A stretch of DNA of 32,000 nt from Allocoleopsis franciscana PCC 7113 (GCF_000317515.1 NC_019738.1:2471224-2503223); one strand, 5' to 3'. Positions 1 through 14,828 are shown, numbered from the stretch's first letter. Numbers and translations are program-made. Notes: generated by a model not told the origin, from the sequence alone.

Positions 1-103
1 TATCATTATCAATTCCTACCACGTCCAAACCTTGTGCGGCAAAAAACGTTGTAGCTTCAGAGCCAATTAACCCGGCTGAGCCAGTAATGATAGCGACACT
101 CAC
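1..103 (-). CDS. NAD-dependent epimerase/dehydratase, N-terminal fragment (gene runs off the left edge)
   Basis: The reverse complement of 1-103 reads [36 protein letters not shown], with a Rossmann GxxGxxG at the N-terminus. GGGAG ends 7 nt upstream of the GTG at 103. It is absent from the ORF track because it is truncated. Confidence 0.7.
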
Positions 104-155
104 GTTTTACTCCCAAAATACAGATGGAACAAGCTAAGCAATGGAGGTTTGATCA

Positions 156-1310
156 TTATTCGTTCAAAACTAAAGAAATAACCTCCACAAAAGATTGGGC
201 GGCTGAAGATGGATTTTTCGTGCTAATGAGTTGCTGAGATTGCTGACTCATTGAATCAATTAGTTCTGGATGTTCCAGAAACCGACGCATAGCGATCGCT
301 AATTCTTCAGGTGCAAACGGGTCAAAAATGTAACCATTCTTGCCCTCAATCACCATTTCTGCGGCTCCTGCCCATTTAGAACATAGAACAGGTTTCCCAA
401 AAACCATCGCTTCAAGCGCCACCATTCCCCATATATCTTCTAATGTGGGAAATACAAAAACATCTGCCTGTTGGAAGTATTTCCCTAGACGCCCATATTC
501 TACCCAGCCGACCCACTTGACCTGATCTTCTAAATGTTGATTTTTGATAAAGATTTCTAGTTCCTCTCGTTGCTCACCCGTACCAACAATCAGGAGTGAA
601 TAATCTAAATAGCCCTGAGATCGCAGAATAGAACAGGCTGCTAAAAGTGACTGAATCCCTTTTCTAGGTGTAATACGTCCCACATACAGAAAAATGGGAG
701 GCTTGAGCGTTTCATCGAATTGATCAACCGTCTCAAGACTTTGCTGTAAAGTGGTTGCATCCGGCACTAAATACGTTTTAGTAAACACTATTTCTGACTT
801 TGCACCCACCCCCTCAATTAGATAATCTTTAGCTCCATAACTATTAGCCACAAAGGCATCCGCATAGCGAGACATCACTCGTCGAAAAAGTGAACGAAGA
901 GTTGAATCTCGAAAATCTGAGTTGGGAGAACTGCCATCATAAATAATGATAAATCGCCACTTTCCCCAAGGTTTTAAAAGCAGCGCTAACAGAGTCCACA
1001 ACGAATAAGCTTGAGCCAAGATTACCTGTGGCTTAAATTGTATTAAGTGACCCATGATACCGGGAGAGAGTATCATTAGACGACGGCTGTAACCCTTCGT
1101 CTGAGTCATCTCTAGAGATTTCATCTCCCCGACAATTTTGATGACATCTGCGCCGGGAACGTCAGGATCGAATCCGGGCCAAACCAGACCGGTGTAAAAA
1201 ATTGTATTTTTAAATACCTTTGTGAATTCTCTCAATACAGGTTGCCAGTAAGCCCCCAGTTCTACCGAAGGTACTAACCAAGCAATGCGAATATCTTTAC
1301 TCTCATCCAT
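156..1310 (-). CDS. glycosyltransferase, GT-B fold (family 4/1-like)
   Basis: 384-aa ORF. The C-terminal half carries the GT-B donor-binding signature FVFPTLEDIWGMVALEAMVFGKPVLCSKWAGAAEMVIEGKNGYIFDP. It lies inside a sugar-modifying cluster. Confidence 0.8.
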   Translation of the reverse strand: MDESKDIRIAWLVPSVELGAYWQPVLREFTKVFKNTIFYTGLVWPGFDPDVPGADVIKIVGEMKSLEMTQTKGYSRRLMILSPGIMGHLIQFKPQVILAQAYSLWTLLALLLKPWGKWRFIIIYDGSSPNSDFRDSTLRSLFRRVMSRYADAFVANSYGAKDYLIEGVGAKSEIVFTKTYLVPDATTLQQSLETVDQFDETLKPPIFLYVGRITPRKGIQSLLAACSILRSQGYLDYSLLIVGTGEQREELEIFIKNQHLEDQVKWVGWVEYGRLGKYFQQADVFVFPTLEDIWGMVALEAMVFGKPVLCSKWAGAAEMVIEGKNGYIFDPFAPEELAIAMRRFLEHPELIDSMSQQSQQLISTKNPSSAAQSFVEVISLVLNE

Positions 1311-1480
1311 CCGGTTGACCCTGAGTTATACAGACCCGGCTATTTAGCCACTCTCTCACAAGATGGGAATGAATCATAGGCGTTTCACCAAACATTTACC
1401 TGAATCAACCCGATGAGATTATCCACTTTCTGGCGACAACACAGCCGCTATCGACGCTACAATCCCACTAGTATTTTTAC

Positions 1481-2380
1481 TCATTCAGCCTTTTTTTCAG
1501 AACCACCGATGAGCGAAATTCCCAATAATCTGCGATAGGGAATCAACCAGTAAAGGGGCCAAAGCAGACCGCCATGCCTCTGGGCGAAAATTTTCCACTC
1601 CCAAAAAGGGTGAAGGACTTGTTCTTTTACGGGTAAACCCTTGGGTTGTCCAATTTTTTTGAGTCCTTCACCCAACGCTACGGATTCATCCGCCTCACTC
1701 CCCGGTTTGTAGTTCTGCGAACAAGTCCCCACATATCCAGGTGCAACCCAAAGGGTACACCCCTGTCGCTGGGCGCGTAAACCGTAGTCCCAGTCACCGG
1801 CATAGTGAGTAAAAGCCGGCTCTAGATTCCCCACGACTTGAACCACGGCTCTGGGAATCAGAACACAGTTGCCGTTAATGGTGTCACAGCGCTGTGGGGA
1901 CTCCCCAGGTTCTAGCAAGTCAAATTTCAGGGGTCGCCAACGGCTGCGGCGCATTACCCCTCCATAAGTTGGGGCTTTAGTTTGGGGATCGCAAGTCGAT
2001 CCGGCAACAATAGCCCGATGCTCACCTTGATCCCGTAAATGATCAAACGTTTCTAAGAGGTGGCTTAAGGCGTTGGGGTAAAGCAGGGTGTCATTGTTCA
2101 ACCACAGGTAGTAGTCGTAGTCGTCCTTAATGGCTTCAGCAAAGGCAAGGCGTGTTCCGCCATTCCAAAATAAGCTGCCATCTCCTTTCAGAATCTTCAC
2201 CTGGGGATAGGACTGGGCTACAGCCTCTGCGGTATCATCCGTACTGCCATCATCGACTAAATAAACATCAATGGTGAGCTTACCCTTGAGTTCCTGATGG
2301 AAGAGAGCCTGAAGACAAGCCAACGTCAGTAGCTTGCGGTTATGGCAAGTGAGCAGTGCAGCTAGGCGATCGCAGTTCAT
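1481..2380 (-). CDS. glycosyltransferase family 2 (GT-A fold)
   Basis: Motifs LTCHNRK, VYLVDDGSTDDT and LWLNNDTLL are present. The ORF track begins at a TTG (2419), but the ATG at 2380 (MNCDRLAALLTCHNR) gives the usual short GT2 N-terminus. Confidence 0.8.
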   Translation of the reverse strand: MNCDRLAALLTCHNRKLLTLACLQALFHQELKGKLTIDVYLVDDGSTDDTAEAVAQSYPQVKILKGDGSLFWNGGTRLAFAEAIKDDYDYYLWLNNDTLLYPNALSHLLETFDHLRDQGEHRAIVAGSTCDPQTKAPTYGGVMRRSRWRPLKFDLLEPGESPQRCDTINGNCVLIPRAVVQVVGNLEPAFTHYAGDWDYGLRAQRQGCTLWVAPGYVGTCSQNYKPGSEADESVALGEGLKKIGQPKGLPVKEQVLHPFWEWKIFAQRHGGLLWPLYWLIPYRRLLGISLIGGSEKKAE

Positions 2381-2635
2381 CGGTTCAAATCGGTTGATTC
2401 TCGTCGCAACCAGGTACAAGAGGCTTCATCTGAATAGAATAATGAGCTGGAAATTTTTCTGTATTGAAATTTACATTCCATCTCTGTCATTCAACGGATC
2501 AGGTCAGCACTCACGGAGCCAATCGGTGACTAACGGCCTGAAAGATGACAAGTTCATTGATTGTATCGATAGAATTTTACCGTAACTTACGATAAACCCC
2601 TCCGTTACCTCTGTGAGAAAGTGAGACAAGCCATT

Positions 2636-3595
2636 ATGGAAGATTTTGGCATTATTGTTGCCTGTTGTTACCAAGATTACTTATTTGCCAAGGGCTGTTG
2701 TGCCAGTATTAGACATTTCTTGGGCGATGTTCCAATCTGCCTGATTGTTGATGGAACGTTCTCGGTCAGCTCCTTGGAAAAGGCATACAACGTTCGTATC
2801 CTCAATCACCATAACGTGACCCATGAGCTTCTTAAGAAAAGAAGCTTTGGTTGGGGGAAAACGAAGATGATTGCATTTTGGGAAAGCCCCTGGAAGCATT
2901 TTCTCGTTTTAGATGCGGATACGAATGTATGGGGGAATGTTCTCAAGTATGCCGACTTTAAAAATTATGATGCGGTGATTGACAAGCCTCGTTATGGTTA
3001 TCCCGACGACAAGGTTTGTGAGTTTTTCTTTGAAATTTCAGCCGTGGAGAAATATTTCCCCGATTTTAACTGGCAAGCTCACCGTCATGATTATTTTTGT
3101 ACAGGAACCTTCTTTGGAACACGAGATATCTTTAGTTTGGAGGAATATATCGAGATTTTAGATTTCACAGAAAAGCATCCAGGCATCTTTAAATATGGTG
3201 AGATGGGTTTCTTGAACTTCATGCTTTTCCGGGCGGCAGATAATGGGAAAATCCGCTTGGGGCAAGTGCCGATGCAACTCATTGTCCCCGATTTTGAACG
3301 AGAGGCAATGCAAAAACGCTTTCCTGTGGAGGAAACGGGGCCAGTGGTACAGAATGAAGAGGCGATCGTGATTCACTGGTGTGGGCCAAAGCCAAGATTA
3401 TCAACGTCTCAAGTCTATCCAGAACCCATGAGTTTTTGTCGGCGGCAATTTCTCCATAATGAGCGTGGATATACGGGAACAACTGCTAATTTATGGCTGA
3501 AATTAGAAGATTATTCCAGCCTTGTAAACGTTTATAAGAACAAAATTCTTCGCAAATTATCTCAACGCCGTCAAAGGTTACTGACTCAGAAATAA
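2636..3595 (+). CDS. putative nucleotide-sugar transferase (DxD, GT-A-like), family uncertain
   Basis: The frame is open from GTG 2621, and ATG 2636 gives MEDFGIIVACC. There is a DxD-like LVLDADT motif. It is divergent from the GT2 gene. No stronger family signature was recognised. Confidence 0.5.
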   Translation: MEDFGIIVACCYQDYLFAKGCCASIRHFLGDVPICLIVDGTFSVSSLEKAYNVRILNHHNVTHELLKKRSFGWGKTKMIAFWESPWKHFLVLDADTNVWGNVLKYADFKNYDAVIDKPRYGYPDDKVCEFFFEISAVEKYFPDFNWQAHRHDYFCTGTFFGTRDIFSLEEYIEILDFTEKHPGIFKYGEMGFLNFMLFRAADNGKIRLGQVPMQLIVPDFEREAMQKRFPVEETGPVVQNEEAIVIHWCGPKPRLSTSQVYPEPMSFCRRQFLHNERGYTGTTANLWLKLEDYSSLVNVYKNKILRKLSQRRQRLLTQK

Positions 3596-3839
3596 TCGTT
3601 AGTCTTGGGAAAAATCATCGTTTGTTGAGAATTGACCAAAGGAAATGAAGCATGGGTTTGATTGTTCTCCCGATGGGAGCAGCCGCACTTGATTTTGACT
3701 GACTCCTTTCCCAGGACAAGACGATTGTAAGGACAGAATCCGATTGCCTCTTCGCCCAAAATCTATCGGGTGAGAAAGGAGTAGTTCTCTACGAATCTGC
3801 TACCCTAAGTTTTTAAAGGCGTGAAGCATTGTATTTATT

Positions 3840-4103
3840 GTGAGTTCCATGAATCTGCCGGAAACGACTGCCTATGTCAGGATTACGCAGCACTCCTGGC
3901 AACAGGGAAAGATGGAAGGAGAAGTGCAAGCGGCAGAATATAGGTGGCAGTTTCAGTGGTGTTTCCGGAAAGGACAGTTGTCTGTCAAACCTTCTCTAGG
4001 ACGTGCTCTGATTCAAGAGCCACTCGGTCGTTTTTTAGAGCGCTGCGATTACCAATTGGAGCCAGGAGGAGATTATGCCTTTACGATTCGAGCTGAACTG
4101 TGA
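3840..4103 (+). CDS. hypothetical protein (87 aa)
   Basis: ORF evidence only (GTG 3840 or ATG 3849), with no motif recognised. Its TGA stop (4101-4103) lies in the left target-site duplication of the adjacent MITE. Confidence 0.35.
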   Translation: MSSMNLPETTAYVRITQHSWQQGKMEGEVQAAEYRWQFQWCFRKGQLSVKPSLGRALIQEPLGRFLERCDYQLEPGGDYAFTIRAEL

Positions 4104-4107
4104 TTAG

Positions 4108-4268
4108 GGGTGCATCCCATTTGTACAAGAACACCTGGCGATTGGAAATCGCTGCTATAGAAACGAAGTCCGCCTGCGCGGACTCAATGCCAGCCTGCGG
4201 AGGCAGGCTTTGTTTGTATAGCCCCAGACTTCTAGTCTGTGGGCAATTTGTAAAATCGGGATGCTCCC
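4108..4268. mobile_element. MITE-like non-autonomous element, 161 bp
   Basis: The terminal inverted repeats are GGGTGCATCCCATTTGTACAA (4108-4128) and the reverse complement of 4248-4268, GGGAGCATCCCGATTTTACAA (17/21 identical). They are flanked by direct GTGATTAG at 4100-4107 and 4269-4276. There is no coding capacity, and the interior is an inverted dimer of a two-hairpin module. Confidence 0.7.
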
Positions 4269-4293
4269 GTGATTAGAGCCGATCATTGATGCT

Positions 4294-4710
4294 TCAGCCT
4301 TCTTTTGACTCCATCCCTAATCCCTTCAAATAACGTTCGATTAACAAAATGGCAACAATATCATCGATGGGACGAGGGGGTTCGCGCATTCCTTGAGGGA
4401 TGAGGCGTTGCAGTCCTGTGGGGGGGTACATTTGCCAATAGCGATCGCGTGCTTCTAAACTGCTGTAACGCTCATCGACCAAAACAATCGGCAATGAGGC
4501 TGATAACTCGCGCTCAAGTGTCTGTTTCCACTTTTTTGCCGTCGTTTGATCGCCCATCACTAAGGTGGTGATGGAGAATTGCTGACACAATTGTTGAAGG
4601 GTTGCGATCGCATCAGCAGACGGCACAACCTGATGGTAAAGGAGCTGTTGCTGCTTACCCATTACGGCTAAACCACATTTATCGCGTCCGGGATCAAAGC
4701 CTAAAAGCAA
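4294..4710 (-). CDS. YqgF/RuvX-like RNase H-fold nuclease (resolvase-like)
   Basis: 138 aa with a TTG start. The N-terminal LLGFDPGRDKCGLAV resembles the G-x-D-x-G-x-x-R-x-G-x-A motif of YqgF. VLVDERYSSLEA matches the second conserved DER(L)T(T)xxA block. It starts 24 nt downstream of the preceding gene. Confidence 0.55.
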   Translation of the reverse strand: MLLGFDPGRDKCGLAVMGKQQQLLYHQVVPSADAIATLQQLCQQFSITTLVMGDQTTAKKWKQTLERELSASLPIVLVDERYSSLEARDRYWQMYPPTGLQRLIPQGMREPPRPIDDIVAILLIERYLKGLGMESKEG

Positions 4711-4734
4711 GGAATTTCTTCTCGACTCAACAAA

Positions 4735-6309
4735 TCATGTTTTAAAAAGCACTTGTCCATTGTGCATCGCAACCAACTGTAATTTCAAGGGACCAGCGGT
4801 AGGGGTTGTTTCTTGAGTGATCGCTTTAATATCTACAGATTGACCATACTTTTCTAGCTGTTCAATAAAGTTAATGACTGTAATGATGCGACCATCTCCA
4901 ATCTGAATACTACCGAGTATCCCAGCACGACGCGCCCGGAACTGAGCGGCAGCTAGCAACTGATCGAGCCGCTGCCTGATTTGTTCATTAGTCATCGTTG
5001 AAGCATCGACAGAAACGGTAGCCAAGAGTTCCTCCGCTGGAAATACAACTTGATTAGGGACTGCATCTGCAAAAACTTGTATGTCCTTTTCGCCCTCCAC
5101 ATAGTTACCAACAGAGAGGATTCGCACCACATAGTCTTTCCCATCTTTAATCTGATTAATTAACACCTCAACCTGTGATTTAGGGATTTTGACCAGAGGC
5201 TCATCGGCATCTGTTCTATTCTGGCGAGTGATTTCAACAGCTTTGCGATTCGCTTCCCGCAATAGCTGTTCAATGGCTTGAGGAGCAGCCTTTGGATCAA
5301 CCACGCGCACAACACCAAAGGCCAGAACTTGACCACGAACCAGAGCGACATTACCCTGACGCAGCACTTGATAGTTCTGATAATACTGTTCTAGTGTTTC
5401 TACTTCCTGTCGTAAAAAAGCCAGTTGTTTTTCTCGTTCACCAAGTTGTTTTTCTTGAGCAGCCAGTTGGCTTTCTCGTTGCGTAAGTTCTTGTTCCAAT
5501 TCTTGGAGACGAGCTTCGCGCTGGGTAATCGCTGCTCTTAATTTTTCTTCCCGTTCTTTGTAGCGAGCCTCGCGCTGGACGATTACTTGCTTGAATTCTT
5601 GTTCCAGTTCTTTGAGGCGTTCTTCACTCTCAGTAATCGCTCTGGCTTTTTCTTGTAGTTCCTGATTGCGTTCTTTAATGGTTTGATTTTTCCGGGCTAG
5701 TTCCTGATTGCGCTCCTCAATGGTTTGACCTCGCTTGACGAGTTCCTCATCTCGCTGAGTCACTGATTCTCTTAATTGAGCGACTTGAGTTTGAAGTTGA
5801 GTAATTTGCTCAGTGAGTTGATTTCGCTGCTGCAACAACTGCTGGCGTTCTGCTAGGAGTGACTTAATTTCTGATCGGAGTACCGTAGCCTGCCCAGAAA
5901 TATTTTTTAATTGAGCTTGAGCTTTTTGGAAATTTTGATTAATGATATCTAGACGCTTTTGAGCCTCAGATTGCTGGGTTCTAGCTTGAGTTAATTCACT
6001 CTCTACCTGCTGCTTCTGCTGATTAATCGTCTGGATTTCACCACGAGCAATTCTCAGATTTTTTTTGATTTCGTCGAGTCGTAAAAGCCCATCTCTAATA
6101 GAGCCACTTGTCGCGAACAAAATCCCTAAAGTTGTCGCAGAAATCAGACTACCCGTGATTACGGTCACCAAAGTGGCTGTCTTGCGAGGACGTAAATTAA
6201 ATAAGCTTAACCGCGCCTTGCCTACTTTCGTGCCAATGCGATCGCCTAAGGTGGCGATTACCCCCCCCAATAACAAAATTGCCACAATCAGGATATAACC
6301 GCTGGTCAT
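4735..6309 (-). CDS. membrane-anchored coiled-coil protein (resembles cyanobacterial DUF3084 family)
   Basis: The N-terminus has hydrophobic helices (ILIVAILLLGGVIATLG; TATLVTVITGSLISATTLGILFA). A ~270-aa Q/E/R/L heptad-rich region follows, with internal repeats (ERNQEL twice, TQREAR/VQREAR), then a globular C-terminus. Confidence 0.6.
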   Translation of the reverse strand: MTSGYILIVAILLLGGVIATLGDRIGTKVGKARLSLFNLRPRKTATLVTVITGSLISATTLGILFATSGSIRDGLLRLDEIKKNLRIARGEIQTINQQKQQVESELTQARTQQSEAQKRLDIINQNFQKAQAQLKNISGQATVLRSEIKSLLAERQQLLQQRNQLTEQITQLQTQVAQLRESVTQRDEELVKRGQTIEERNQELARKNQTIKERNQELQEKARAITESEERLKELEQEFKQVIVQREARYKEREEKLRAAITQREARLQELEQELTQRESQLAAQEKQLGEREKQLAFLRQEVETLEQYYQNYQVLRQGNVALVRGQVLAFGVVRVVDPKAAPQAIEQLLREANRKAVEITRQNRTDADEPLVKIPKSQVEVLINQIKDGKDYVVRILSVGNYVEGEKDIQVFADAVPNQVVFPAEELLATVSVDASTMTNEQIRQRLDQLLAAAQFRARRAGILGSIQIGDGRIITVINFIEQLEKYGQSVDIKAITQETTPTAGPLKLQLVAMHNGQVLFKT

Positions 6310-6418
6310 CGCCTACGCTTAGTCTGTCCAGATACAGCCTATCTCATGGCTGTAGGGCTTCATGTTCTTTTTTTTGACTCAGCACTGCGCCCATGCGGTC
6401 ATTGATGGATCAAGCGGG

Positions 6419-7090
6419 TTAGGTAAACTGCTGGCTCAACACCACTGGGTTGTGAACCGTAATTTTTTTCTTATGAATTGAAATCATTTGTTCTGAACGC
6501 AAGTCTCCCAGTAAACGAGTCACAGTGACACGGGTTGAGCCTATGGCTTCTGCGATCGCTTGATGAGACAGCTTCAGATCGATGGTGATCCCCTCCGCTG
6601 AGGGGACTCCGAAGTCGCGGCACAGAATCAACAGAAAACTGACCAAGCGCGAACCCATGTCCCGATGAGCGAGTGTTTCGATCATCATTTCTGTTTGCAA
6701 AATCCGTGAGGATAGACCCCGTAACATCAACATGGATAGCTCTGGGTTGTCCTTGAGTGATTGCTCTACTTGGTCAATGGGTGCAGAGAGCAATTCAACA
6801 GGTGTAAAAGCAACGGCATGATAAAACCGATCAGAGCGGTGACCTGTAATCAGCGACAAAACCCCGAAAACACTATTTTCGCGTAACAGCGCTACCGTAA
6901 TTTCTTCCCCAGCTTCGTAAACTCTAGACAGCTTTACGGCTCCTTTGAGCAAGAAGTAGACCCTTTCTGCTGGGTCTCCTGGGAAAAAAATCGTTTTCCC
7001 CCGCTCAAACGTTTCAACCACCGGTGGAAATGCCCCACCGCCCATCTGACGAAACACTGCTGCTAACGGTCTATTTTGCGTCACGACCAT
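6419..7090 (-). CDS. ntcA: global nitrogen regulator NtcA (CRP/FNR family)
   Basis: 223 aa with a cNMP-binding-like N-terminal domain. The C-terminal [28 protein letters not shown] is the canonical NtcA recognition helix region. Confidence 0.93.
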
Positions 7091-7232
7091 AATTTATATG
7101 CTCTTTTGCCAACGCCCTGGCGACTTAGTGTCTATGAATAATTGCCGGTAAAGCTTGAGACTGTTGAACTGAATTGGTGAAATTTCTTGAATGTATCCAA
7201 GACTACTTAATCTGAGTCCAAGCTAGTTTTTT

Positions 7233-7246
7233 GTACTAATTGCTAC
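7233..7246. promoter_or_regulatory. candidate NtcA box (GTA-N8-TAC) upstream of ntcA
   Basis: GTACTAATTGCTAC is a perfect GTAN8TAC, centred about 150 nt upstream of the ntcA ATG in the ntcA/fabI divergent region. I found no clean TAN3T -10 box at the canonical ~22-nt spacing on either strand. Confidence 0.4.
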
Positions 7247-7451
7247 ATAATTTAGGGAAGATTGGTGGAGTGGAACTGTCAGTGAACCAATTGACCTGTC
7301 AAGTCGAGAGCCGAGCGTGGGGTCATCATACACTGTCATACACTTTGTGACTGCATTGGATTGGAGTCATAATACACCGTCTTACCCTGTATAATCACAT
7401 TTGATAACTAGGGATTAAGTGATCATCCAATTAGCTTTAGGATAAAATATT

Positions 7452-8228
7452 ATGCTTAATTTGACTGGAAAAAACGCTCTTGTCACCGGTATTGCCAATA
7501 ATCGCTCGATCGCTTGGGGCATTGCCCAGCAACTGCACAAAGCGGGAGCAAATTTGGGGGTTACCTATCTGCCCGATGAAAAAGGACGTTTTGAGAAAAA
7601 AGTCAAAGAGCTAGTAGAACCCCTCGCCCCTAGTATTTTTTTGCCCTGTAACGTTCAGGACGATGCCCAAATCGCCGCCACCTTCGAGGCGATCGGTCAA
7701 CAATGGGGTAAATTGGACATTCTAATTCATTGCCTTGCCTTTGCGGGTAAAGATGCGTTATCGGGAGACTTTAGTAATGTTTCCAGGGCTGATTTTACCC
7801 AAGCGTTGGAAATTAGCACGTACTCGCTGACTCAACTGGCAGGGGCGGCTAAACCCTTGATGACAGAAGGCGGTAGTATTGTCACCCTCACCTATTTGGG
7901 GGGGGTTAAAGTAATTCCCAATTACAACGTGATGGGAATTGCCAAGGCGGGGCTGGAAATGAGTGTGCGTTACCTAGCGGCTGAACTAGGGCCGAACAAT
8001 ATTCGGGTGAATGCAATCTCAGCAGGGCCGATCCGTACCTTAGCCTCGTCAGCGGTTGGAGGTATCCTCGATATGATTCATCATGTGGAGGAAGTGGCAC
8101 CCCTGCGGCGGACTGTTACCCAGATGGAAGTGGGTAATGCGGCGGCTTTCTTGTGCAGTGATTTATCCAGTGGTGTGACGGGTCAAGTTTTATATGTAGA
8201 CGCCGGTTACGAAATAATGGGGATGTAA
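7452..8228 (+). CDS. fabI: enoyl-[acyl-carrier-protein] reductase (NADH)
   Basis: 258-aa SDR with the N-terminal [13 protein letters not shown] motif and the catalytic Y-x6-K in [12 protein letters not shown]. Confidence 0.92.
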
Positions 8229-8253
8229 GAGTACAGGTAGGAACTCAGGTTTT

Positions 8254-8922
8254 ATGCAACTCAGCGATAGTCCGAAGGGGAATCTGACAGAACACACTGG
8301 TTTCAATCCTCAAAATCAGGAGACTCGGTTCCCCACCCGGATGGCAACCGTCAGCCGTACCACGGGTGAAACGGATGTGCAGGTGAGTTTGAATTTGGAG
8401 GGTACAGGCGCTTGCACGGCTGCCACAGGTATCCCATTTTTAGACCACATGCTGCATCAGATTTCTTCCCATGGGTTGATCGATCTGGACGTGCGGGCTA
8501 AGGGAGACATTGAAATTGATGACCACCACACCAATGAAGATGTGGGGATTACACTGGGGATGGCGTTAGGGAAAGCACTGGGCGATCGCAAAGGGATTGT
8601 TCGCTTTGGTCATTTTTTCGCCCCCCTCGATGAGGCGTTGGTTCAGGTTACCCTCGACTTTTCTGGGCGTCCTCATTTAAGCTACGGCTTGGAGATTCCA
8701 ACGCAGCGGGTGGGAACCTACGACACTCAGTTGGTGCGGGAGTTCTTTGTGGCGGTGGTGAATCACTCTCAGATGACGCTGCACATCCGTCAATTGGATG
8801 GGATTAATTCGCACCACATCATTGAAGCGACGTTCAAGGCATTTGCACGGGCGGTGCGGATGGCGGTGGAAATCGATCCGCGTCGCGCTGGGATGATTCC
8901 TAGTTCTAAGGGTGTGTTGTAG
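8254..8922 (+). CDS. hisB: imidazoleglycerol-phosphate dehydratase
   Basis: Motifs [26 protein letters not shown] and [16 protein letters not shown] are present. There is a ~29-aa N-terminal extension, so the true start could be ATG 8341. Confidence 0.9.
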
Positions 8923-8946
8923 GGGTTGAGAAGTGAGAAGGCGATG

Positions 8947-8992
8947 GCGATTGAAATCGCAGCTATACAAACTCGCGTCCGCCTGCGCGGAC
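8947..8992. repeat. solo copy of the two-hairpin module found in the 4108-4268 MITE
   Basis: GCGATT-GA-AATCGC, A, GCTATACAAAC, TCGC, GTCCGC-CTGC-GCGGAC. This matches 4138-4183 in architecture and almost in sequence. It lies between the hisB stop and the STAND gene start. Confidence 0.6.
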
Positions 8993-9073
8993 TGAAAAGG
9001 GGGCTGTCGCTAATTTTGGGAAGTGTTAGGATTCAGGCTAGGATTTTCCCCTTTCCAAGACTGATAACAAATT

Positions 9074-12000
9074 ATGGACGCCGTAGCCATCTTGACATTG
9101 ATTGGACTTGTCATTGGCATCATTGCTGGTGTGGTGCAAGTCCTAGATTTTCTGGAAAAGCAACGGGAAAAAAAGCGATCGCTGGCAAATCAGACACCAT
9201 CGCCCCAGATTGCACAAGTTCCAAGTGCACCACCAGAAGTAGGCAGGACTCCTAAATCCATTGCATCATCGCATCAAGATTGGGGGGAAGCGGTTGATAC
9301 CTCAGCCTTTTACGGACGTACAGAAGAACTCGCCAAGTTAGCGCAATGGATTGTGCGCGATCGCTGCCGATTAGTCGCACTGTTGGGAATGGGGGGAATT
9401 GGCAAAACCTCTGTGTCGATTAAGCTAGCTCAGCAGATTCAGGATGAGTTTAAGTTTGTTATTTGGCGAAGCTTACGCAATGCTCCACCTGTTGAGGATA
9501 TCCTGAAAGACCTGATTAAAGTTCTCTCCAATCAGCAGGAAACTCAATTACCAGACACGTTAAACGAGTTAGTTGCCCGACTGATCGATTACTTGCGACA
9601 GTCCCGATGTTTACTGGTTTTGGATAATGCTGAATCGATTCTCCAAGGAGGCAATCGTGCAGGAGAGTATCAACAGGGCTATGAGGGATATGGTGAGCTT
9701 TTCAGACGCATTGGCGGAACCGTTCATCAAAGTTGTTTAGTATTAACCAGTCGGGAGAATCCTAAAGACATTGCTTCCGCCGCAGGAGATGCTCTTCCTG
9801 TTCGATACATGCAATTAATTGGTTTGAAATTAACAGAAGGAGAAGAACTATTTCACGCTCTGAAAGTCTCTGGTTCAGAAGCACAGGAGCAGGAACTAAT
9901 TGATTTTTACAAAGGCAGTCCCCTGGCTCTAAAAATTGTTTCCACAACGATTCAGGAGCTATTTGATGGGGATATTGCTCAATTTTTGCAGAGCAAGGTA
10001 GTTGTTTTCAGTGACATTCGCGATTTACTAGACCAGCAGTTTAATCGGCTGTCGGATTTGGAACGAGAAGTGATGTACTGGCTAGCAATTAATCGTGAGG
10101 CAGTTTCTTTATCCGAGTTGCGAGAAGATATTGTCTCGTTGGAATCACCGCCAAAGTTGATGGAAGCGATACAGTCTTTAGTGAGGCGATCGCTCATCGA
10201 AAAATGTACCGCGCTCTTCACGCTGCAACCTGTGGTCATGGAGTATTTAACTGACCGATTGATTGAACAGGTTTGTGATGAGATTAAAACCGGAAAAATT
10301 GAAGTATTTAACAGATACACTCTGATTAAGGCAACAGCGAAAGATTATATTAGGGAGACTCAAGTTCGCCTGATTCTTAAACCTATTGCTGAGAGGATTC
10401 CCGTAGGGGCGCACGGCTGTGCGCCCTTGCAACAAATGCTCTCAAAATTACGAGAGCAATTTTCTCGTAAACCAGGGTATGCAGGTGGAAATATTCTCAA
10501 TCTGCTTTGCTATCTACAAACAGATTTAAATGGCTTAGACTTTTCTAATTTGAGAATTTGGCAAGCGTACCTACAGGGCATGACTTTACAACATGTTAAT
10601 TTCGCTCACTCTAACTTATCCAAATCTGTTTTTACTCAAGCTTTCGACAGAATTGTGTCAGTGGCATTTAGCCCAGATGGAAAACTTTTAGCCACAGGTG
10701 ATGTAGTGGGTCAAGTTCGCATTTGGCAAGTTGTGGATGGTCAGCAACTTCTTACCTTTCAAGGACATAGCAATTGGGTATCGTCGATTGCTTTCAGTCC
10801 CGATGGTCAACTGCTTGCCGTTACTGGTCATAGTGACTCAACCATACAACTGTGGGAGGCTAGCACTGGAAAGTGTGTGCAAATTTTGCCAGGGCATACC
10901 GGTTGGGTATCGTCGGTGGCTTTCAGTCAGGATGGTCAAACCCTAGCTAGTGGCAGTAGTGATTTAACTGTGAGGCTGTGGTCGTTCAGCACTGGGCAAT
11001 GTCTCCGTATTTTGCAGGGTCATACTGATCGGGTGTGGTCAGTGGCTTTCAGTCGGGATGGTCAAACCCTGGTTAGTGGCAGTAATGACCAAACAGTGAG
11101 GCTGTGGGAGGTCAGCACTGGGCAGTGTCTCCGTATTTTGCAGGGTCATACTGATCAGGTGCGGTCGGTAGTATTCAGTCCCAATGGTCAAACCGTGGCT
11201 AGTGGTAGTGCTGATCAAACCGTGAAGCTGTGGGAAGTTAGCACGGGTCATTGTTTGAAAACTCTAGAGGAAAATACTAATGGCACAAGGACAATTGCCT
11301 TTAGTCCTGACGGTCGAATCTTAGCCAGCGGCAATTATGACCAAACCGTGAAGCTGTGGGAGGTCAGCACTGGGCAGTGTCTCCGTATTTTGCAGGGTCA
11401 TACTGATCGGGTATGGTCGGTTGCTTTCAGTCCTGATGGTCGAATCTTAGCCAGCGGCAGTGATGACCAAACAGTGAGGCTGTGGGAGGTCAACACTGGG
11501 CAAGGTCTCCGTATTTTGCAGGGTCACGCGAATAAGATAGGGTCGGTTGCTTTTAGTTGTGATAACCAATGGCTTGCTACTGGCAGTGGTGACAAAGCAG
11601 TGCGGCTTTGGGTGGCTAACACTGGGCAATGCTCGAAAACTCTACAGGGTCATCACAAGGCGGTAACTTCCGTTGCCTTTAGTCCAAATAGTCAAACCCT
11701 AGCTAGCAGTGGTGACAATACAGTGCGGTTGTGGGATGTCACGACGGGTCATTGTCTCCATGTTTTGCAAGGTCACGGCAGTTGGTGGGTACAGTGCGTT
11801 GCCTTCAGTCCCGACGGTCAAACGTTAGCGAGTGGCAGTGGTGACCAAACAGTGAGGCTTTGGGAGGTCACCACTGGGCAAGGTCTCCGTGTTTTACAAG
11901 GTCATGACAGTGAGGTGCGGTGTGTTGCTTTTAGTCCCGATAGTCAACTACTTGCTAGTGGTAGTCGTGACGGCATGGTGCGGCTGTGGAAAGTGAGTAC

Positions 12001-12502
12001 AGGGCAATGCTTGAACACTCTACAAGGGCACAACGATTGGGTACAGTCTGTTGCCTTCAGTCAGGATGGTCAAACCCTTGCTAGTAGCAGTAATGACCAA
12101 ACAGTGAGGTTATGGGAAGTCAGCACTGGGCAATGCCTAAAAACTTTGCAAAGACAAACCCGATGGGGAGAGTCCCCTGCATTCAGTCCCGATGGTCAAC
12201 TTTTCGCGGGCGGCAGTAATGATGCAACTGTAGGTTTGTGGGAAGTTAGCACGGGGAAATGTCTGCAAACTTTGCGAGGGCATACTGATAAGATCTGGTC
12301 GGTTGCTTTCAGCCGCGATGGTCAAACCCTAATCAGTGGAAGCCAAGATGAAACCGTTAAGATTTGGAATGTCAAGACGGGTGAGTGCCTAAAAACTCTA
12401 AGAGCTGCTAGACCCTATGAGGGTATGAACATCACCGGAGTTACAGGTTTGACGGAGGCTCAGAAAACCATGCTGAAAACTCTGGGGGCGGTTGAGAGTT
12501 GA
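9074..12502 (+). CDS. STAND NTPase (NB-ARC/AP-ATPase-like) with N-terminal TM helix and 14 C-terminal WD40 repeats
   Basis: 1142 aa. Residues 1-25 are hydrophobic ([20 protein letters not shown]) and are followed by EKQREKKRS. Walker A GMGGIGKT is at 9386-9409 and Walker B LLVLDNAE at 9611-9634. There are 14 units of ~42 aa ([40 protein letters not shown]). The tail [26 protein letters not shown] is typical of cyanobacterial WD40 proteins. Confidence 0.85.
10643..12409 (+). repeat. in-frame array of 14 WD40-coding units, ~126-bp period
   Basis: GCTGTGGGAGGTCAGCACTGGGCAGTGTCTCCGTATTTTGCAGGGTCATACTGATC occurs identically at 11101-11156 and 11353-11408 (252 bp apart). Several neighbouring units differ by only a few bases. 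Confidence 0.9.
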
Positions 12503-12583
12503 AAATAGGATGAGTCGGGGGCGATGCGTCAGGAGAAAGCGCGATCGCAAGTAGAATTTACAAGTTAGCGATCGCACTCTCAC

Positions 12584-13057
12584 TCACTCACCAAACCCTT
12601 GATACTGCATGAGGGTGACAGAAATCATGGGTAATAGTTTGGATGCCAATTGAGAAACTCCAAACTTCCACTTCAGGGATTGAGGTAACTCTTGCCAAGC
12701 AATGGGCACAAAACCAAAACGAGTATAAAACGTTGCCAACCCACTGCCCAAACATTCCAGATACAGGGGTTCGGTTGCCTCCTGAATCAAATGCTTAACT
12801 AAAAAGCTCCCCAAACCTCGATTTCGCCAAGCGGATGCCACCACTAAACTCCCCAATTCTTGCGCCCCAGCAAAGCTACGCAACTGTCCACAAGCAATCA
12901 CACCCCCCTCACATTCCATCACCCAAAACTGTGACCAACGTACCTGAGTCGGATCGAGTTTGGCACTCAGCACTAATTTGCGAATCGCCCAGATATCCTG
13001 GGCACAAGCTCGACGTAGAATACACCCAATGGGTAAAATAAAAGGCTGCTCAGTCAT
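12584..13057 (-). CDS. GNAT family N-acetyltransferase (157 aa)
   Basis: Acetyl-CoA motif A is present (ASAWRNRGLGSFLVKHL), followed by YTRFGF. I prefer the ATG at 13057 (MTEQPFILP), which lies 7 nt after the upstream HTH stop. The longer ORF-track start at 13120 would overlap that gene. Confidence 0.75.
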   Translation of the reverse strand: MTEQPFILPIGCILRRACAQDIWAIRKLVLSAKLDPTQVRWSQFWVMECEGGVIACGQLRSFAGAQELGSLVVASAWRNRGLGSFLVKHLIQEATEPLYLECLGSGLATFYTRFGFVPIAWQELPQSLKWKFGVSQLASKLLPMISVTLMQYQGFGE

Positions 13058-13064
13058 TTGCTCT

Positions 13065-13334
13065 CTAGGATGAACGCTTTGGCGGGCCGCAATCGTCCGG
13101 CAACGCATCGAGAGTAACACCCAACGCTCTACAAAACGCTTTCATTTGGGGAATCGTTAGTTCCGGTTGATATTCACCCCTCTCCCAAGCACTCACAGCT
13201 CTTTGAGAGATGGGTTTAGTTCCCGTTTTGTCAGGAATTTGCCGAGCGAGTTCAGATTGAGTCAGACCGGCCTGAATCCGTAGCCTTTTTAAGGGCGATA
13301 TCGGCTCCTCTGGATTGAGTGGTGCTTGTGGCAT
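13065..13334 (-). CDS. XRE-family helix-turn-helix protein (89 aa)
   Basis: LRIQAGLTQSELARQI...ISQRAVSAWERG is a classic HTH_3-type motif. It sits directly upstream of, and is co-oriented with, the GNAT gene. Confidence 0.75.
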   Translation of the reverse strand: MPQAPLNPEEPISPLKRLRIQAGLTQSELARQIPDKTGTKPISQRAVSAWERGEYQPELTIPQMKAFCRALGVTLDALPDDCGPPKRSS

Positions 13335-13418
13335 GATTGCACAGTTGGATTAGGGGTAAGTAAATCGGATTTCGATACACCTGTAAAATCATTCTCATCT
13401 GTCAAAACTGGTAAACCC

Positions 13419-14699
13419 GTGACTGAACAGGAAAATTTGCTTGGCTCACCATTTCGGCAGCCCCGATTACCCCTTCCCCCACCGATGATGATGTCTGAGG
13501 AAGGCTCTTTCGCCTACTTCACATTAACTCAGCGGATGCCAGCGATTGTCCAACGGGTGATCGATGAAAACGATTTTCCCACATCCATTGTGAATAACTT
13601 GGAAAGCCTGATTCAATCGTTGCCCAATGGAATTGTGCGTTCCCTCGACGACAAAGAGCCAGATTTCACCCAGTGGAATCGATATCTGGAACCCTATATC
13701 GGACAGCGCTGGTTAAACATTCCCTGGTTTTTTGCAGAGGCATACTTCTTCCGTCGTATCCTTGAGGCAACTCATTACTTTCAAGCCGGAAGTACTCAAG
13801 CTGTCGATCCATTTTCCTTACAAAAACGCAGGGGTTTGGAGACAACCCTGGTTTCCATTCGGGAACTGAGTACACGAGTCAATCACTGGATAGAGCAAGC
13901 AAAACATGATCAGGGCAACCTAGAGCCAAAAAGTTTGATTGCTCTACTCTATTCGGTTTTGTGGGGCAACCGGGCTGATTTGAGTCTGTGGCCGATTGAT
14001 GCCGGAGAATTGGATAGCAGCCAAGAAATTCACTTGGAACAAAATCACATCTTGGTCGATGATACGGCACTGATTGCTGAGCGAGTGGCTCGCTTTGAGG
14101 GGGTACGGATGGATGTGATTGTGGATAATGCGGGGTTTGAACTCGTCTGTGATTTATGCGTGGTGGACTTTCTGCTCACAAGCCACGCGGCTGAAGTAAT
14201 TTACTTGCACCTGAAATCCCAGCCCATGTTCGTATCAGATGCGATGATTCAAGATGTGCAAGACACGATCAAGTTTCTCGCCACTACCCGTGATCAGGAT
14301 GTGCAATCCCTGGCGCATCGATTGCAAGATTATCTGGATCAAGGTCGTTTGCTCTGCCGTGAGGATGCTTTTTGGACATCTCCCTTCGTATTCTGGGAAA
14401 TGCCCGAACCCCTAAGGCAAGAGTTAGCTCAATCTGCGCTAATTTTAATTAAGGGAGATGCGAATTATCGCCGATGCTTAGGCAATCGCACCTGGCCTTT
14501 TACAACGGCTTTTGCAGATATCGTCTGCTACTTCCCCGCCCCCTTGGTGGCTCTACGCACTCTCAAGTCAGAACTGGTAGTGGGTTTAGGATTAGAGCAG
14601 ATCGCAGCACTCAATCAGGAAGACTCAGAGTGGTTAACCAATGGGCAATGGGGTGTGATTCAATTCGTCGATCCAACAGCTATAACCGCTGCGCCCTAA
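13419..14699 (+). CDS. DUF89/ARMT1-like metal-dependent (damage-control) phosphatase
   Basis: The metal-site motifs of DUF89, DNAGFELVCDL and KGDANYRR, are present. The start is uncertain: the frame is open from 13326, GTG 13419 retains the RLPLPPP segment, and ATG 13485 is the alternative. Confidence 0.7.
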   Translation: MTEQENLLGSPFRQPRLPLPPPMMMSEEGSFAYFTLTQRMPAIVQRVIDENDFPTSIVNNLESLIQSLPNGIVRSLDDKEPDFTQWNRYLEPYIGQRWLNIPWFFAEAYFFRRILEATHYFQAGSTQAVDPFSLQKRRGLETTLVSIRELSTRVNHWIEQAKHDQGNLEPKSLIALLYSVLWGNRADLSLWPIDAGELDSSQEIHLEQNHILVDDTALIAERVARFEGVRMDVIVDNAGFELVCDLCVVDFLLTSHAAEVIYLHLKSQPMFVSDAMIQDVQDTIKFLATTRDQDVQSLAHRLQDYLDQGRLLCREDAFWTSPFVFWEMPEPLRQELAQSALILIKGDANYRRCLGNRTWPFTTAFADIVCYFPAPLVALRTLKSELVVGLGLEQIAALNQEDSEWLTNGQWGVIQFVDPTAITAAP

Positions 14700-14828
14700 T
14701 CCTCGCTTTCTCAGATAGCCGTTACTTGTTAGCAATCTTCAACCACCCAAAAACCTGCTCTGCCGTTAAATGTAACTCAATGCTTTCAAGAACTTGCAAG
14801 CGATCGCAACTATTTCTTCCCCCATTAG

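Follow-up and report, generated by a model that had tools for sequence, protein, structure and literature searches.

A conserved single-helix module at the N-terminus of an NB-ARC/WD40 STAND protein of Allocoleopsis franciscana and its possible role as a membrane output

Which output can a sensor protein have when its only N-terminal module is a single hydrophobic helix? This question is raised by a gene in a stretch of 32,000 nucleotides (nt) of Allocoleopsis franciscana PCC 7113 (GCF_000317515.1, NC_019738.1:2471224-2503223), which is called the window in the following. The gene encodes a STAND protein of 1142 amino acids (aa). In a first-pass annotation, which had been made from the sequence alone, it was described as Apaf-1-like, and it was proposed that its N-terminal helix is either a plain anchor or a membrane-perturbing effector. 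Profile searches and comparisons with homologues revealed that the helix is a conserved, strictly N-terminal and mobile module, which at the level of sequence is nearly restricted to STAND proteins of unrelated clades. It is probably the output of the protein, or at least a dedicated anchor.

The N-terminus consists of a single hydrophobic helix

The protein is composed of a hydrophobic helix, the basic stretch EKQREKKRS, a disordered P/S/Q-rich linker, a nucleotide-binding oligomerization domain (NOD) of the NB-ARC type, a pentapeptide-like spacer and 14 WD40 repeats, in this order, as had been described earlier for the open reading frame (ORF) at 9074-12502. Orthologues were taken from a Stenomitos-labelled metagenome-assembled genome (MAG; locus L002), a Coleofasciculaceae MAG (L003), Nostoc NIES-4103 (L004) and Symplocastrum torsivum (L005). 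The gene and its parts are:

9074..12502, plus strand: whole gene including the stop codon, with ATG start (ORF listing); 1142-aa helix-NB-ARC-WD40 STAND protein
9074..9181, plus strand: N-terminal helix module, aa 1-36; hydrophobic from A3 to L24, conserved face G11/G15/A18/Q22/D25/K29, basic flank
9182..9274, plus strand: P/S/Q-rich flexible linker, aa 37-67; pLDDT below 50 over aa 39-64
9275..10513, plus strand: NOD, aa 68-480; P-loop domain plus helical and winged-helix domains, with QDWGEA, GSPLALKIV (GLPL-like) and MEY at the MHD position
9386..9409, plus strand: Walker A motif GMGGIGKT, aa 105-112; G105, G108, G110 and K111 invariant in 63 homologues
9611..9634, plus strand: Walker B motif LLVLDNAE, aa 180-187; L180, D184 and N185 invariant in 63 homologues
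10514..10618, plus strand: pentapeptide-repeat-like spacer, aa 481-515, between NOD and propellers
10619..12427, plus strand: 14 WD40 repeats, aa 516-1118, about 42 aa each; presumed ligand sensor
12428..12499, plus strand: C-terminal tail of 24 aa (translation), 83-96% identical in L002 and L005

The residues from A3 to L24 are uncharged and hydrophobic, and the segment has a membrane-spanning length. The Kyte-Doolittle maximum of the entire protein, averaged over 19 residues, starts at residue 3 and has a mean of 2.85. The helix is preceded by D2 and followed by D25 and the EKQREKKRS stretch (aa 28-36), and according to the positive-inside rule such a charge pattern predicts an N-out/C-in signal anchor. 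An AlphaFold2 model of aa 1-520, which was based on a 63-sequence alignment (mean pLDDT 78.9, pTM 0.76), contains a single long helix from aa 3 to aa 38, which has a low pLDDT and is docked on nothing. The weak Pfam matches of the module were limited to transmembrane (TM) families, i.e., LapA_dom, DUF308, Vpu and Glycophorin_A, and no domain beyond the single helix was detected in aa 1-67. Pfam scans of the whole protein did not yield any enzymatic effector domain. Thus, the hydrophobic helix, its K/R flank and the lack of an enzymatic effector were found as reported before. The P/S/Q-rich linker was also present and is predicted to be disordered over aa 39-64, but its length had been overestimated: instead of about 45 aa, only about 30 aa extend to the first conserved NOD motif (HQDWGEA, aa 66-72). 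The linker is just 13-23% identical in L004 and L005, while the parts on both sides of it are conserved.

The start codon of the gene is secure, because two in-frame stop codons are located 3-4 codons 5′ of the ATG, and because synonymous codon changes have occurred across the helix in orthologues (synonymous/non-synonymous 4/0 in L002 and 13/13 in L005). Possible in-frame starts past the helix are at codons 94, 104 and 106. With a start at codon 94, the nearest of them, or later, the family-wide QDWGEA motif would be lost. It had been considered that homologues might share a downstream start that removes the helix. This is not the case, since the helix is present in all eight of the closest homologues, in which A18, G19, Q22, V23, L24, D25 and K29 are invariant; among close homologues, E28 and R31 do not vary either.

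The helix is a conserved and portable module

A profile of the module with 42 positions was used for an exhaustive search of 1.84 billion representatives. At E <= 1e-3 it retrieved 96 protein clusters, 21 of them at E <= 1e-10, and nearly all matches begin at protein residue 1-12. The consensus of 104 sequences is MDxxTIIGIIAGIVGIIAGxVQVLDYLEKRREK, and the module comprises 34 residues. The best conserved columns are A18 (100/104), Q22 (97/104), G19 and Y26 (96/104 each), G15 and D/E25 (93/104 each). Position 2 is acidic (D or E) in 68 of 97 module sequences, including D2 of the window protein, and many variants start with MEPI or MDPI. The conserved positions cluster on one face of the helix, G11-G15-A18-Q22-D25-K29 (permutation p = 0.018), and their spacing in the sequence is that of a tight helix-helix packing stripe.

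All 27 module representatives of at least 600 aa contain a P-loop with Walker A motif. At least four architectures were found behind the module with Pfam, namely NB-ARC+TPR (in several clades), EAD7+NB-ARC+TPR, NB-ARC+WD40 and P-loop+HEAT, and the P-loop of the HEAT form matches Avs2 of PADLOC at 2.4e-11. Non-STAND carriers, e.g., PIG-L deacetylases, are rare. In most comparisons in which the NODs align at 23-35%, the identity of the module is 50-70%. As the helix is tied as a mobile module to STAND proteins, a dedicated function is favored. Named loci with the module belong to the Stenomitos-labelled and Coleofasciculaceae MAGs, Symplocastrum, Nostoc NIES-4103, Scytonema, Brasilonema and one 'Sericytochromatia'-labelled MAG. 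Matches of only 38-67 aa were considered as stand-alone small module proteins; this was rejected, because both of the proteins examined are 5′ fragments of the helix-type STAND gene, which is interrupted by a frameshift or runs off its contig.

The module is not represented by a model in Pfam, NCBIfam or PADLOC. None of 38 module sequences matched the Pfam families HeLo, Helo_like_N, SesA, Rx_N or RPW8 at E <= 10, and a comparison of the module profile with PDB sequences gave chance matches only (E >= 0.7). The NB-ARC/WD40 scaffold is already known, as are, in principle, TM segments as effectors of STAND proteins. What appears novel is this highly conserved cassette of a single helix and its occurrence on several STAND scaffolds. 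The cassette was not found in Pfam, NCBIfam, PADLOC or the literature searched, and it may still have been described.

To see which modules occupy the same position in relatives, a search with aa 1-520 was performed, which yielded 2953 NOD relatives. Among the best 120 of them, the helix occurs only in the closest relatives (P0001-P0008, 57-88% identity) and in P0084. The others, with about 50-60% NOD identity, have helix-turn-helix (HTH) domains of the XRE, LuxR/GerE or PF26355 type, EADs or a CHAT protease (about 430 aa) at their N-terminus. A similar picture was obtained for 64 loci in species-representative genomes, four of which have the helix (L002-L005) and seven CHAT, while most have an HTH domain. 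On the sequence level the helix fills the slot that is used by effector, adaptor and output modules, in accordance with the earlier suggestion that other modules might share its position. A related protein of 556 aa (P0049) has about 20 polar residues, two hydrophobic helices and then the collar VEKRREKKES, and thus carries a two-TM variant of the module.

Two module-bearing STAND genes that were looked up lie in defence-type neighborhoods. One encodes a helix+NB-ARC+TPR protein (L068, GCA_009612995.1, positions 1-14718), and its region is a candidate for a composite defence island. It is bordered on one side by a pPIWI_RE/RNaseH-pPIWI_RE gene and a gene for an SNF2-NOV_C helicase, and on the other side by genes for a DUF1156 methyltransferase and a protein of 1191 aa, all genes being on one strand. 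The other one sits among MNT/HEPN, RelB-like and TumE genes.

The NOD and the WD40 arm are Apaf-1-like

The NB-ARC model of Pfam matched with 51.8 bits (cut-off 23.5, E 8.9e-14), with only model positions 3-107 of 248 being covered, and the NACHT model with 37.6 bits (cut-off 26.7, E 2.6e-9). AAA_16 and nSTAND1 were also matched in aa 1-520. The NOD is well modelled by AlphaFold2, with pLDDT values mostly above 80. A Foldseek search with the model retrieved the STAND-TPR protein 6mfv (7e-10), Apaf-1 (3sfz, 3e-9), Roq1 (5e-9), CED-4 (4e-8) and ZAR1 (1.4e-7). The TM-scores of these structural alignments were low (0.3-0.4) because the domain arrangements differ. The best PDB sequence matches were ZAR1 (6j5t, 3.1e-6, P-loop region) and MLA13, followed by AfsR. 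Taken together, sequence and model support that the protein belongs to the NB-ARC/AP-ATPase-type STANDs with the Apaf-1-like layout that had been assigned to it before, and the two Walker motifs and the number of WD40 repeats also agree with the first-pass annotation.

The GLPL-like motif GSPLALKIV is conserved, and P283, L284, A285 and L286 are invariant or nearly so. In contrast to the MHD/LHD motif, the presumed equivalent site, which was assigned by eye, reads V-M-E-Y and lacks the histidine. M389, E390 and Y391 are nearly invariant; the three codons are located at 10238-10246. As the NOD family lacks the MHD/LHD histidine in this alignment, the nucleotide-sensing switch may differ from that of Apaf-1 and plant NLRs.

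The spacer behind the NOD was modelled with short strands at regular spacing and pLDDT values of 90 and above, and it had a weak Pfam Pentapeptide match at aa 484-520 (E 0.01, below the cut-off). Repeat parsing found 14 WD40 repeats over aa 516-1118, Pfam WD40 matched 13 stretches (4.4e-169), and Tandem Repeats Finder (TRF) detected the array as a 126-nt period over 10850-12331. From the repeat count we infer two 7-bladed propellers, for which 14 repeats suffice. The repeats are mutually 56% identical on average and up to 86%, and their variability is concentrated right after GH and in SGSxDxT. These positions form top-surface loops of the WD40 structure.

The gene is embedded in an ordinary chromosomal segment

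The direct neighbors of the STAND gene are:

8254-8922: hisB, upstream neighbor
12584-13120, minus strand: GNAT gene, downstream neighbor
13065-13334, minus strand: XRE-type HTH gene, downstream neighbor

On the upstream side a DUF3084 gene, an ntcA-type CRP gene, a gene for a fabI-type enoyl-ACP reductase and hisB are found, and on the downstream side genes for an ARMT1-like phosphatase and a metallophosphoesterase follow after the GNAT/HTH pair. Farther genes encode glycosyltransferases, ClpB, LtrA, a Band-7 protein, a pterin-binding enzyme and a second, unrelated TM+WD40 protein. The setting is an ordinary segment of a cyanobacterial chromosome and not a defence island. It had been assumed that the gene directly follows a repeat module. 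Such a module is absent: the upstream gene is hisB, and the gap of 151 bp between hisB and the STAND gene contained only short chance-level matches of 10-17 nt, both in a repeat search of 8600-9400 and in a TRF analysis of the whole window. The adjacent HTH/GNAT pair is indeed present, but the accessory context that had been deduced turned out to be weak, as the setting is a housekeeping one, the hisB-STAND synteny is retained in three related genomes, and the GNAT/HTH pair is not conserved with the gene. A promoter and terminator scan of 8800-13400 gave counts equal to those of shuffled sequences. As called mechanically, with a GTG start at 13120, the GNAT ORF shares 56 nt with the 3′ end of the XRE-HTH gene on the same strand; its real start is probably further downstream, because the Pfam match begins at residue 62.

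The gene order DUF3084-ntcA-fabI-hisB-STAND is kept in the Coleofasciculaceae MAG (L003) and in S. torsivum (L005), and fabI-hisB-STAND is kept in the Stenomitos-labelled MAG (L002), in which the contig is short. The identity of the STAND protein in these three loci is 80-85%, compared to 88-98% for the housekeeping neighbors. The GNAT/HTH pair was considered as a functional partner and rejected, as it is absent beside the S. torsivum orthologue, and the neighbors also differ in L001, L004 and L066. Altogether, no conserved partner gene was found in the four helix-type contexts examined, in which the neighbors differ. The gene is vertically stable in a narrow clade, patchy beyond it and devoid of a conserved partner. 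Its loci lie in differing contexts, and it is not a syntenic core gene of all cyanobacteria, a possibility that had been raised as an argument against an immune role.

The different parts of the protein favor different orthologues. The helix and the NOD are closest to L002 (100% and 88%, compared to 64% and 71% for L005), whereas the WD40 array is closest to L005 (89%, compared to 81% for L002). This mosaic similarity in the sequences suggests recombination or repeat exchange in the sensor arm.

In S. torsivum, Uma2 genes are present on either side of the STAND gene, and in Nostoc NIES-4103 the helix-type STAND gene adjoins a kinase-WD40 gene and a Uma2 gene. These genes of the Uma2 family (putative restriction endonuclease, PF05685; L005 9192-9779 and 14231-14818, L004 13620-14183) flank the helix-type orthologues in the two species and not the window gene, and the association is probably a coincidence. 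On two metagenome contigs (L001 and L066) helix-type homologues lie between SHMT and cinA and are broken by frameshifts or an inserted ORF. At L066 6001-9484 (JGI 3300041964) the gene is split into a helix piece of 57 aa, a NOD ORF, an ORF with no Pfam match and a WD40 fragment; at L001 10001-13479 it is split into a 495-aa helix+NOD ORF, a 555-aa ORF with no Pfam match and an 89-aa WD40 fragment. Assembly frameshifts are the likely reason, because SHMT is also split in L066; pseudogenization is possible.

Comparison with known systems

Killing by an N-terminal helix of NLR-type sensors is known from plants (ZAR1), fungi (HET-S/HeLo) and, since recently, bacteria (Bell/Bab), and in all of these cases the helix is sheathed. 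The window protein shares with Apaf-1 and the AP-ATPases the NB-ARC-type NOD followed by tandem WD40 propellers, including the Walker motifs GMGGIGKT and LLVLD and the GLPL-like GSPLALKIV. It differs from Apaf-1 in having a single membrane helix in place of a CARD, caspase-like or CHAT N-terminus, 14 instead of 15 WD40 repeats, a pentapeptide-like spacer between NOD and propellers, and, with the equivalence judged by eye, MEY (aa 389-391) instead of the MHD/LHD histidine. The closest homologues of Apaf-1 are cyanobacterial STANDs with WD40 sensors, some of which have N-terminal caspase-like proteases (2026 survey, PMC13581612).

The coiled-coil (CC)-NLR resistosome of ZAR1 is the best PDB sequence match, an acidic residue is also present near the N-terminus of the window protein, and by analogy the proposed output would likewise be an N-terminal helix that acts in the membrane after NOD oligomerization. 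However, in ZAR1 the alpha-1 helix is amphipathic and, prior to activation, enclosed in a CC bundle of four helices, while the window helix is fully hydrophobic, lacks a bundle, is set off by a disordered linker and has no Rx_N hidden Markov model (HMM) match. In addition, the sensor consists of WD40 repeats and not, as in ZAR1, of leucine-rich repeats. With the Bell, Babybell and HeLo domains the module has in common that a hydrophobic helix is located strictly at the N-terminus, that position 2-3 is acidic and that a glycine in the center is conserved. Like Bell and the MEPIS motif at the N-termini of Avs2 and bNACHTs, it is tied to NLR-type proteins of filamentous cyanobacteria, and one module protein has an Avs2-like P-loop. 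An acidic position 2 has been reported for the first helices of Bell, HeLo, MLKL, RPW8 and Rx_N (10.1101/2020.01.06.895854). The exchanges D2A and G11K abolish the activity of Bab, and the related "MEPIS" N-terminus of Avs2 is needed for defence (10.1101/2024.11.07.622273). In contrast, Bell and HeLo domains are bundles of 80-120 aa with four helices cupping helix 1, whereas the module is one helix followed by a disordered linker, and it has neither an HMM match nor a paired amyloid motif. Thus, the analogy to CC alpha-1 and HeLo that had been drawn earlier holds for the acidic position 2 and the hydrophobic first helix, but it does not extend to a sheathing bundle or an HMM relationship. The protein is not a member of HeLo/Bell, because a bundle and an HMM link are lacking, and the sequences do not establish homology with them.

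Cam1 is a non-enzymatic effector with a single N-terminal TM helix, which forms a tetrameric pore lined by a conserved Asp (PMC10808066). The window protein resembles Cam1 and the CARF/SAVED-TM proteins in the order of one N-terminal TM helix, a linker and a cytoplasmic sensing or oligomerizing domain, and in conserved polar or acidic helix residues (D17/D22 in Cam1, Q22/D25 here). An oligomeric pore and depolarization are predicted by this analogy. However, Cam1 is a pre-assembled tetramer that is gated by cA4 and depends on a CRISPR cyclase, while here a single STAND polypeptide comprises sensor, switch and helix and would be triggered by its own assembly; Cam1 also has no sequence similarity to the module. 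With Avs and bNACHT proteins the tripartite organization of effector, STAND and repeat sensor is shared, and TM segments are an accepted effector class in these families; TM modules are among the listed N-terminal effectors of Avs7 (PMC13581612). Unlike them, the window protein belongs to an NB-ARC/WD40 clade and not to the Avs clades. PADLOC yielded a WD40-driven HEAT-ARM_XIII match and a marginal PDC-S27 match (1.2e-4 to 4e-4) but no match to an Avs or bNACHT model, and the protein falls outside all Avs and bNACHT families listed in PADLOC.

A possible mechanism and alternative explanations

The reading that fits best is that the gene encodes a complete NLR-like sensor, which would be inserted into the membrane before it is activated. 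In accordance with the positive-inside rule, the helix would insert N-out/C-in, and the resting monomer would be a harmless single-pass membrane protein with cytoplasmic NOD and propellers. A ligand, presumably a phage, other non-self or danger-associated protein, would bind to the variable top surface of the WD40 propellers, and nucleotide-dependent assembly of a NOD ring would follow, as in Apaf-1, CED-4 or ZAR1. The ring would gather five to eight helices via the flexible linkers of about 30 residues. The stripe of small residues (G11, G15, A18/G19) would allow tight helix packing, and Q22, D25 and Y26 would form a polar collar at the cytoplasmic end. The outcome would be an ion-conducting bundle or a local membrane defect, and depolarization would lead to growth arrest or death of the infected cell, so that the filament or population would be protected. 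The helix is favored as the output because the protein has no other effector domain and no conserved partner gene. The chain as a whole is put forward tentatively, and we judge it marginally more apt to fail at one of its steps than to hold throughout. In a more far-reaching version, which is possible but rather doubtful, the pre-inserted, sheath-less helix of 34 residues would be a minimal cell-death effector that a ring-forming NOD clusters into a glycine/alanine-zipper channel, i.e., the simplest resistosome. Shuffling in filamentous cyanobacteria and their relatives would have brought the cassette into four or more STAND architectures, and it may represent a stripped-down relative, or an ancestor-like version, of helix 1 in Bell, HeLo and CC domains.

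Several points weigh against such a mechanism. Oligomerization, membrane insertion, toxicity and phage defence of the window protein are all proposals derived from its sequence. A sheath around the helix is missing, in contrast to the sheaths of four to five helices in ZAR1, HeLo and Bell, and therefore the helix would always be in the membrane and would have to be gated by clustering alone. The disordered linker would couple the ring geometry to the helices only loosely, and a lumen consisting mostly of Gly and Ala with polar residues at one end is not obviously suited to conduction. In the EAD7-containing proteins the adaptor should recruit a separate effector, and therefore the helix need not be the output there, which fits an anchor. 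Most sister proteins have HTH domains, which point to a regulatory output of the clade. The gene lies among housekeeping genes and is inherited vertically at the same site in related genomes, PADLOC gave no specific match for the window protein, and the 38 module sequences had no HMM relationship to HeLo, Helo_like_N, Rx_N or RPW8 in Pfam.

Alternatively, the helix might be a plain though dedicated anchor, which tethers the STAND protein to the plasma or thylakoid membrane for ligand sampling, while the output lies elsewhere. In this case the conserved face would serve for contact with a conserved membrane partner or for dimerization in the resting state, and the output would proceed via a recruited protein or a scaffold. 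The length, the hydrophobicity and the charge asymmetry are those of an N-out signal anchor, the weak matches include the anchor families LapA_dom and ZapG-like, and the helix+EAD7 proteins have an adaptor able to recruit a true effector. The occurrence of the module on a few non-STAND proteins such as PIG-L deacetylases, the absence of a sheath for regulated release together with the long and loose linker, and the second TM+WD40 protein in the window, which indicates that membrane-tethered WD40 proteins are common here, would also be in line with an anchor. However, the retention of 50-70% identity across proteins with 23-35% identical cores is unlike ordinary anchors, as are near-invariant Gly, Ala, Gln, Asp and Tyr residues on one face. 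Moreover, the protein has no other output domain, no partner gene is conserved nearby, and the module stands in for bona fide effector and adaptor domains at the same position. Taken together, a mere tether appears unlikely, if worth serious consideration. Still less probable is a non-immune signalling STAND, i.e., a membrane-tethered physiological or developmental regulator in filamentous cyanobacteria, which would be related to HTH paralogues acting in a MalT/AfsR-like manner. It would fit that most close NOD relatives have an HTH domain of the XRE, LuxR/GerE or PF26355 type, that AfsR and MalT are among the structural and sequence matches, that the gene has ntcA-fabI-hisB on one side and the ARMT1-like gene on the other, with synteny retained in three related genomes (about 80-85% identity), and that it matches no PADLOC family. 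Yet the helix form has no DNA-binding domain, and the family swaps in CHAT and EAD modules, which is typical of conflict systems. Other module-bearing members lie in defence islands, the WD40 variation is found mainly at presumed ligand-contact positions in a region that is mosaic between orthologues, and the gene is patchy and in differing contexts outside of the narrow clade.

Two further explanations are essentially excluded. If the N-terminus were a homotypic signalling motif, either amyloid/BASS-like or adaptor-like, it would template a second protein that carries this motif and acts as the effector, in the manner of the Bell/NLR or Bab/Agp pairs. The shortness and the strong conservation of the module would fit, and cyanobacterial NLRs often have a motif of 20-25 residues at the N-terminus that is paired with a neighboring Bell-domain gene (10.1101/2020.01.06.895854). 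Nevertheless, this is very improbable: the significant profile matches are all N-terminal and none is C-terminal, as a paired effector would require; the adjacent hisB and GNAT genes lack the motif; the short matches (38-67 aa), as far as they were looked up, derive from the STAND gene itself by frameshifts and are not partners; and the composition is that of a TM helix (Kyte-Doolittle 2.85) and not of a G/N/Q-rich amyloid motif. An annotation artefact, i.e., a true start downstream or a cleaved signal peptide, is hardly credible. The region is N-terminal and hydrophobic and has GTG/TTG codons at positions 7, 9, 20 and 21, but the peptide is conserved, with synonymous DNA changes in orthologues, and across 96 clusters. 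The translated N-terminus has neither a basic n-region nor an AxA site, and its h-region comprises 22 residues. Moreover, the NOD of STAND NTPases is ATP-dependent and must be cytoplasmic, which counts against a cleaved signal peptide.

The observation of the module is sound, its concept is unsurprising to specialists, and its function is a prediction from sequence. The putative effector is cut down to one helix with a charged collar, and many STAND scaffolds carry it as a portable cassette. Should clustering alone suffice to disrupt the membrane, the minimal requirement for a resistosome-type channel would be defined, and a toxicity module of 34 residues would be available that is easily testable. 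In addition, catalogues of defence systems, which now skip these genes for want of a PADLOC, Pfam or NCBIfam model, would gain an unannotated effector class. If the helix were only an anchor, a subset of cyanobacterial NLR-like sensors would work at the membrane through a dedicated conserved tether.

Additional features of the window

The second WD40 protein of the window is encoded at 27184-29982 (plus strand) and has 932 aa. About 70 N-terminal residues are followed by a TM helix at about aa 73-95 (IYLMLPLAVVLMALLVGLVLFLY) and then by WD40 repeats, and no P-loop domain was found within its N-terminal 339 aa. This WD40 protein is tethered to the membrane and has no relationship to the helix module of the STAND protein. 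Within the STAND gene, GCGATCGC palindromes are present at 9175-9184 and 9357-9366, which we take to be HIP1 sites, typical of cyanobacterial genomes, in line with the cyanobacterial origin to which ntcA and the closest loci also point. One further gene contains repeats:

4735-6309, minus strand: DUF3084 gene, which houses tandem repeats at 5423-5747

These are three imperfect tandem DNA repeats with periods of 21, 54 and 42 nt, which lie in the Q/E-rich part of the DUF3084 membrane protein. They are the sole tandem repeats near the STAND gene apart from the WD40 array, and they may be the repeat module of the first-pass annotation.

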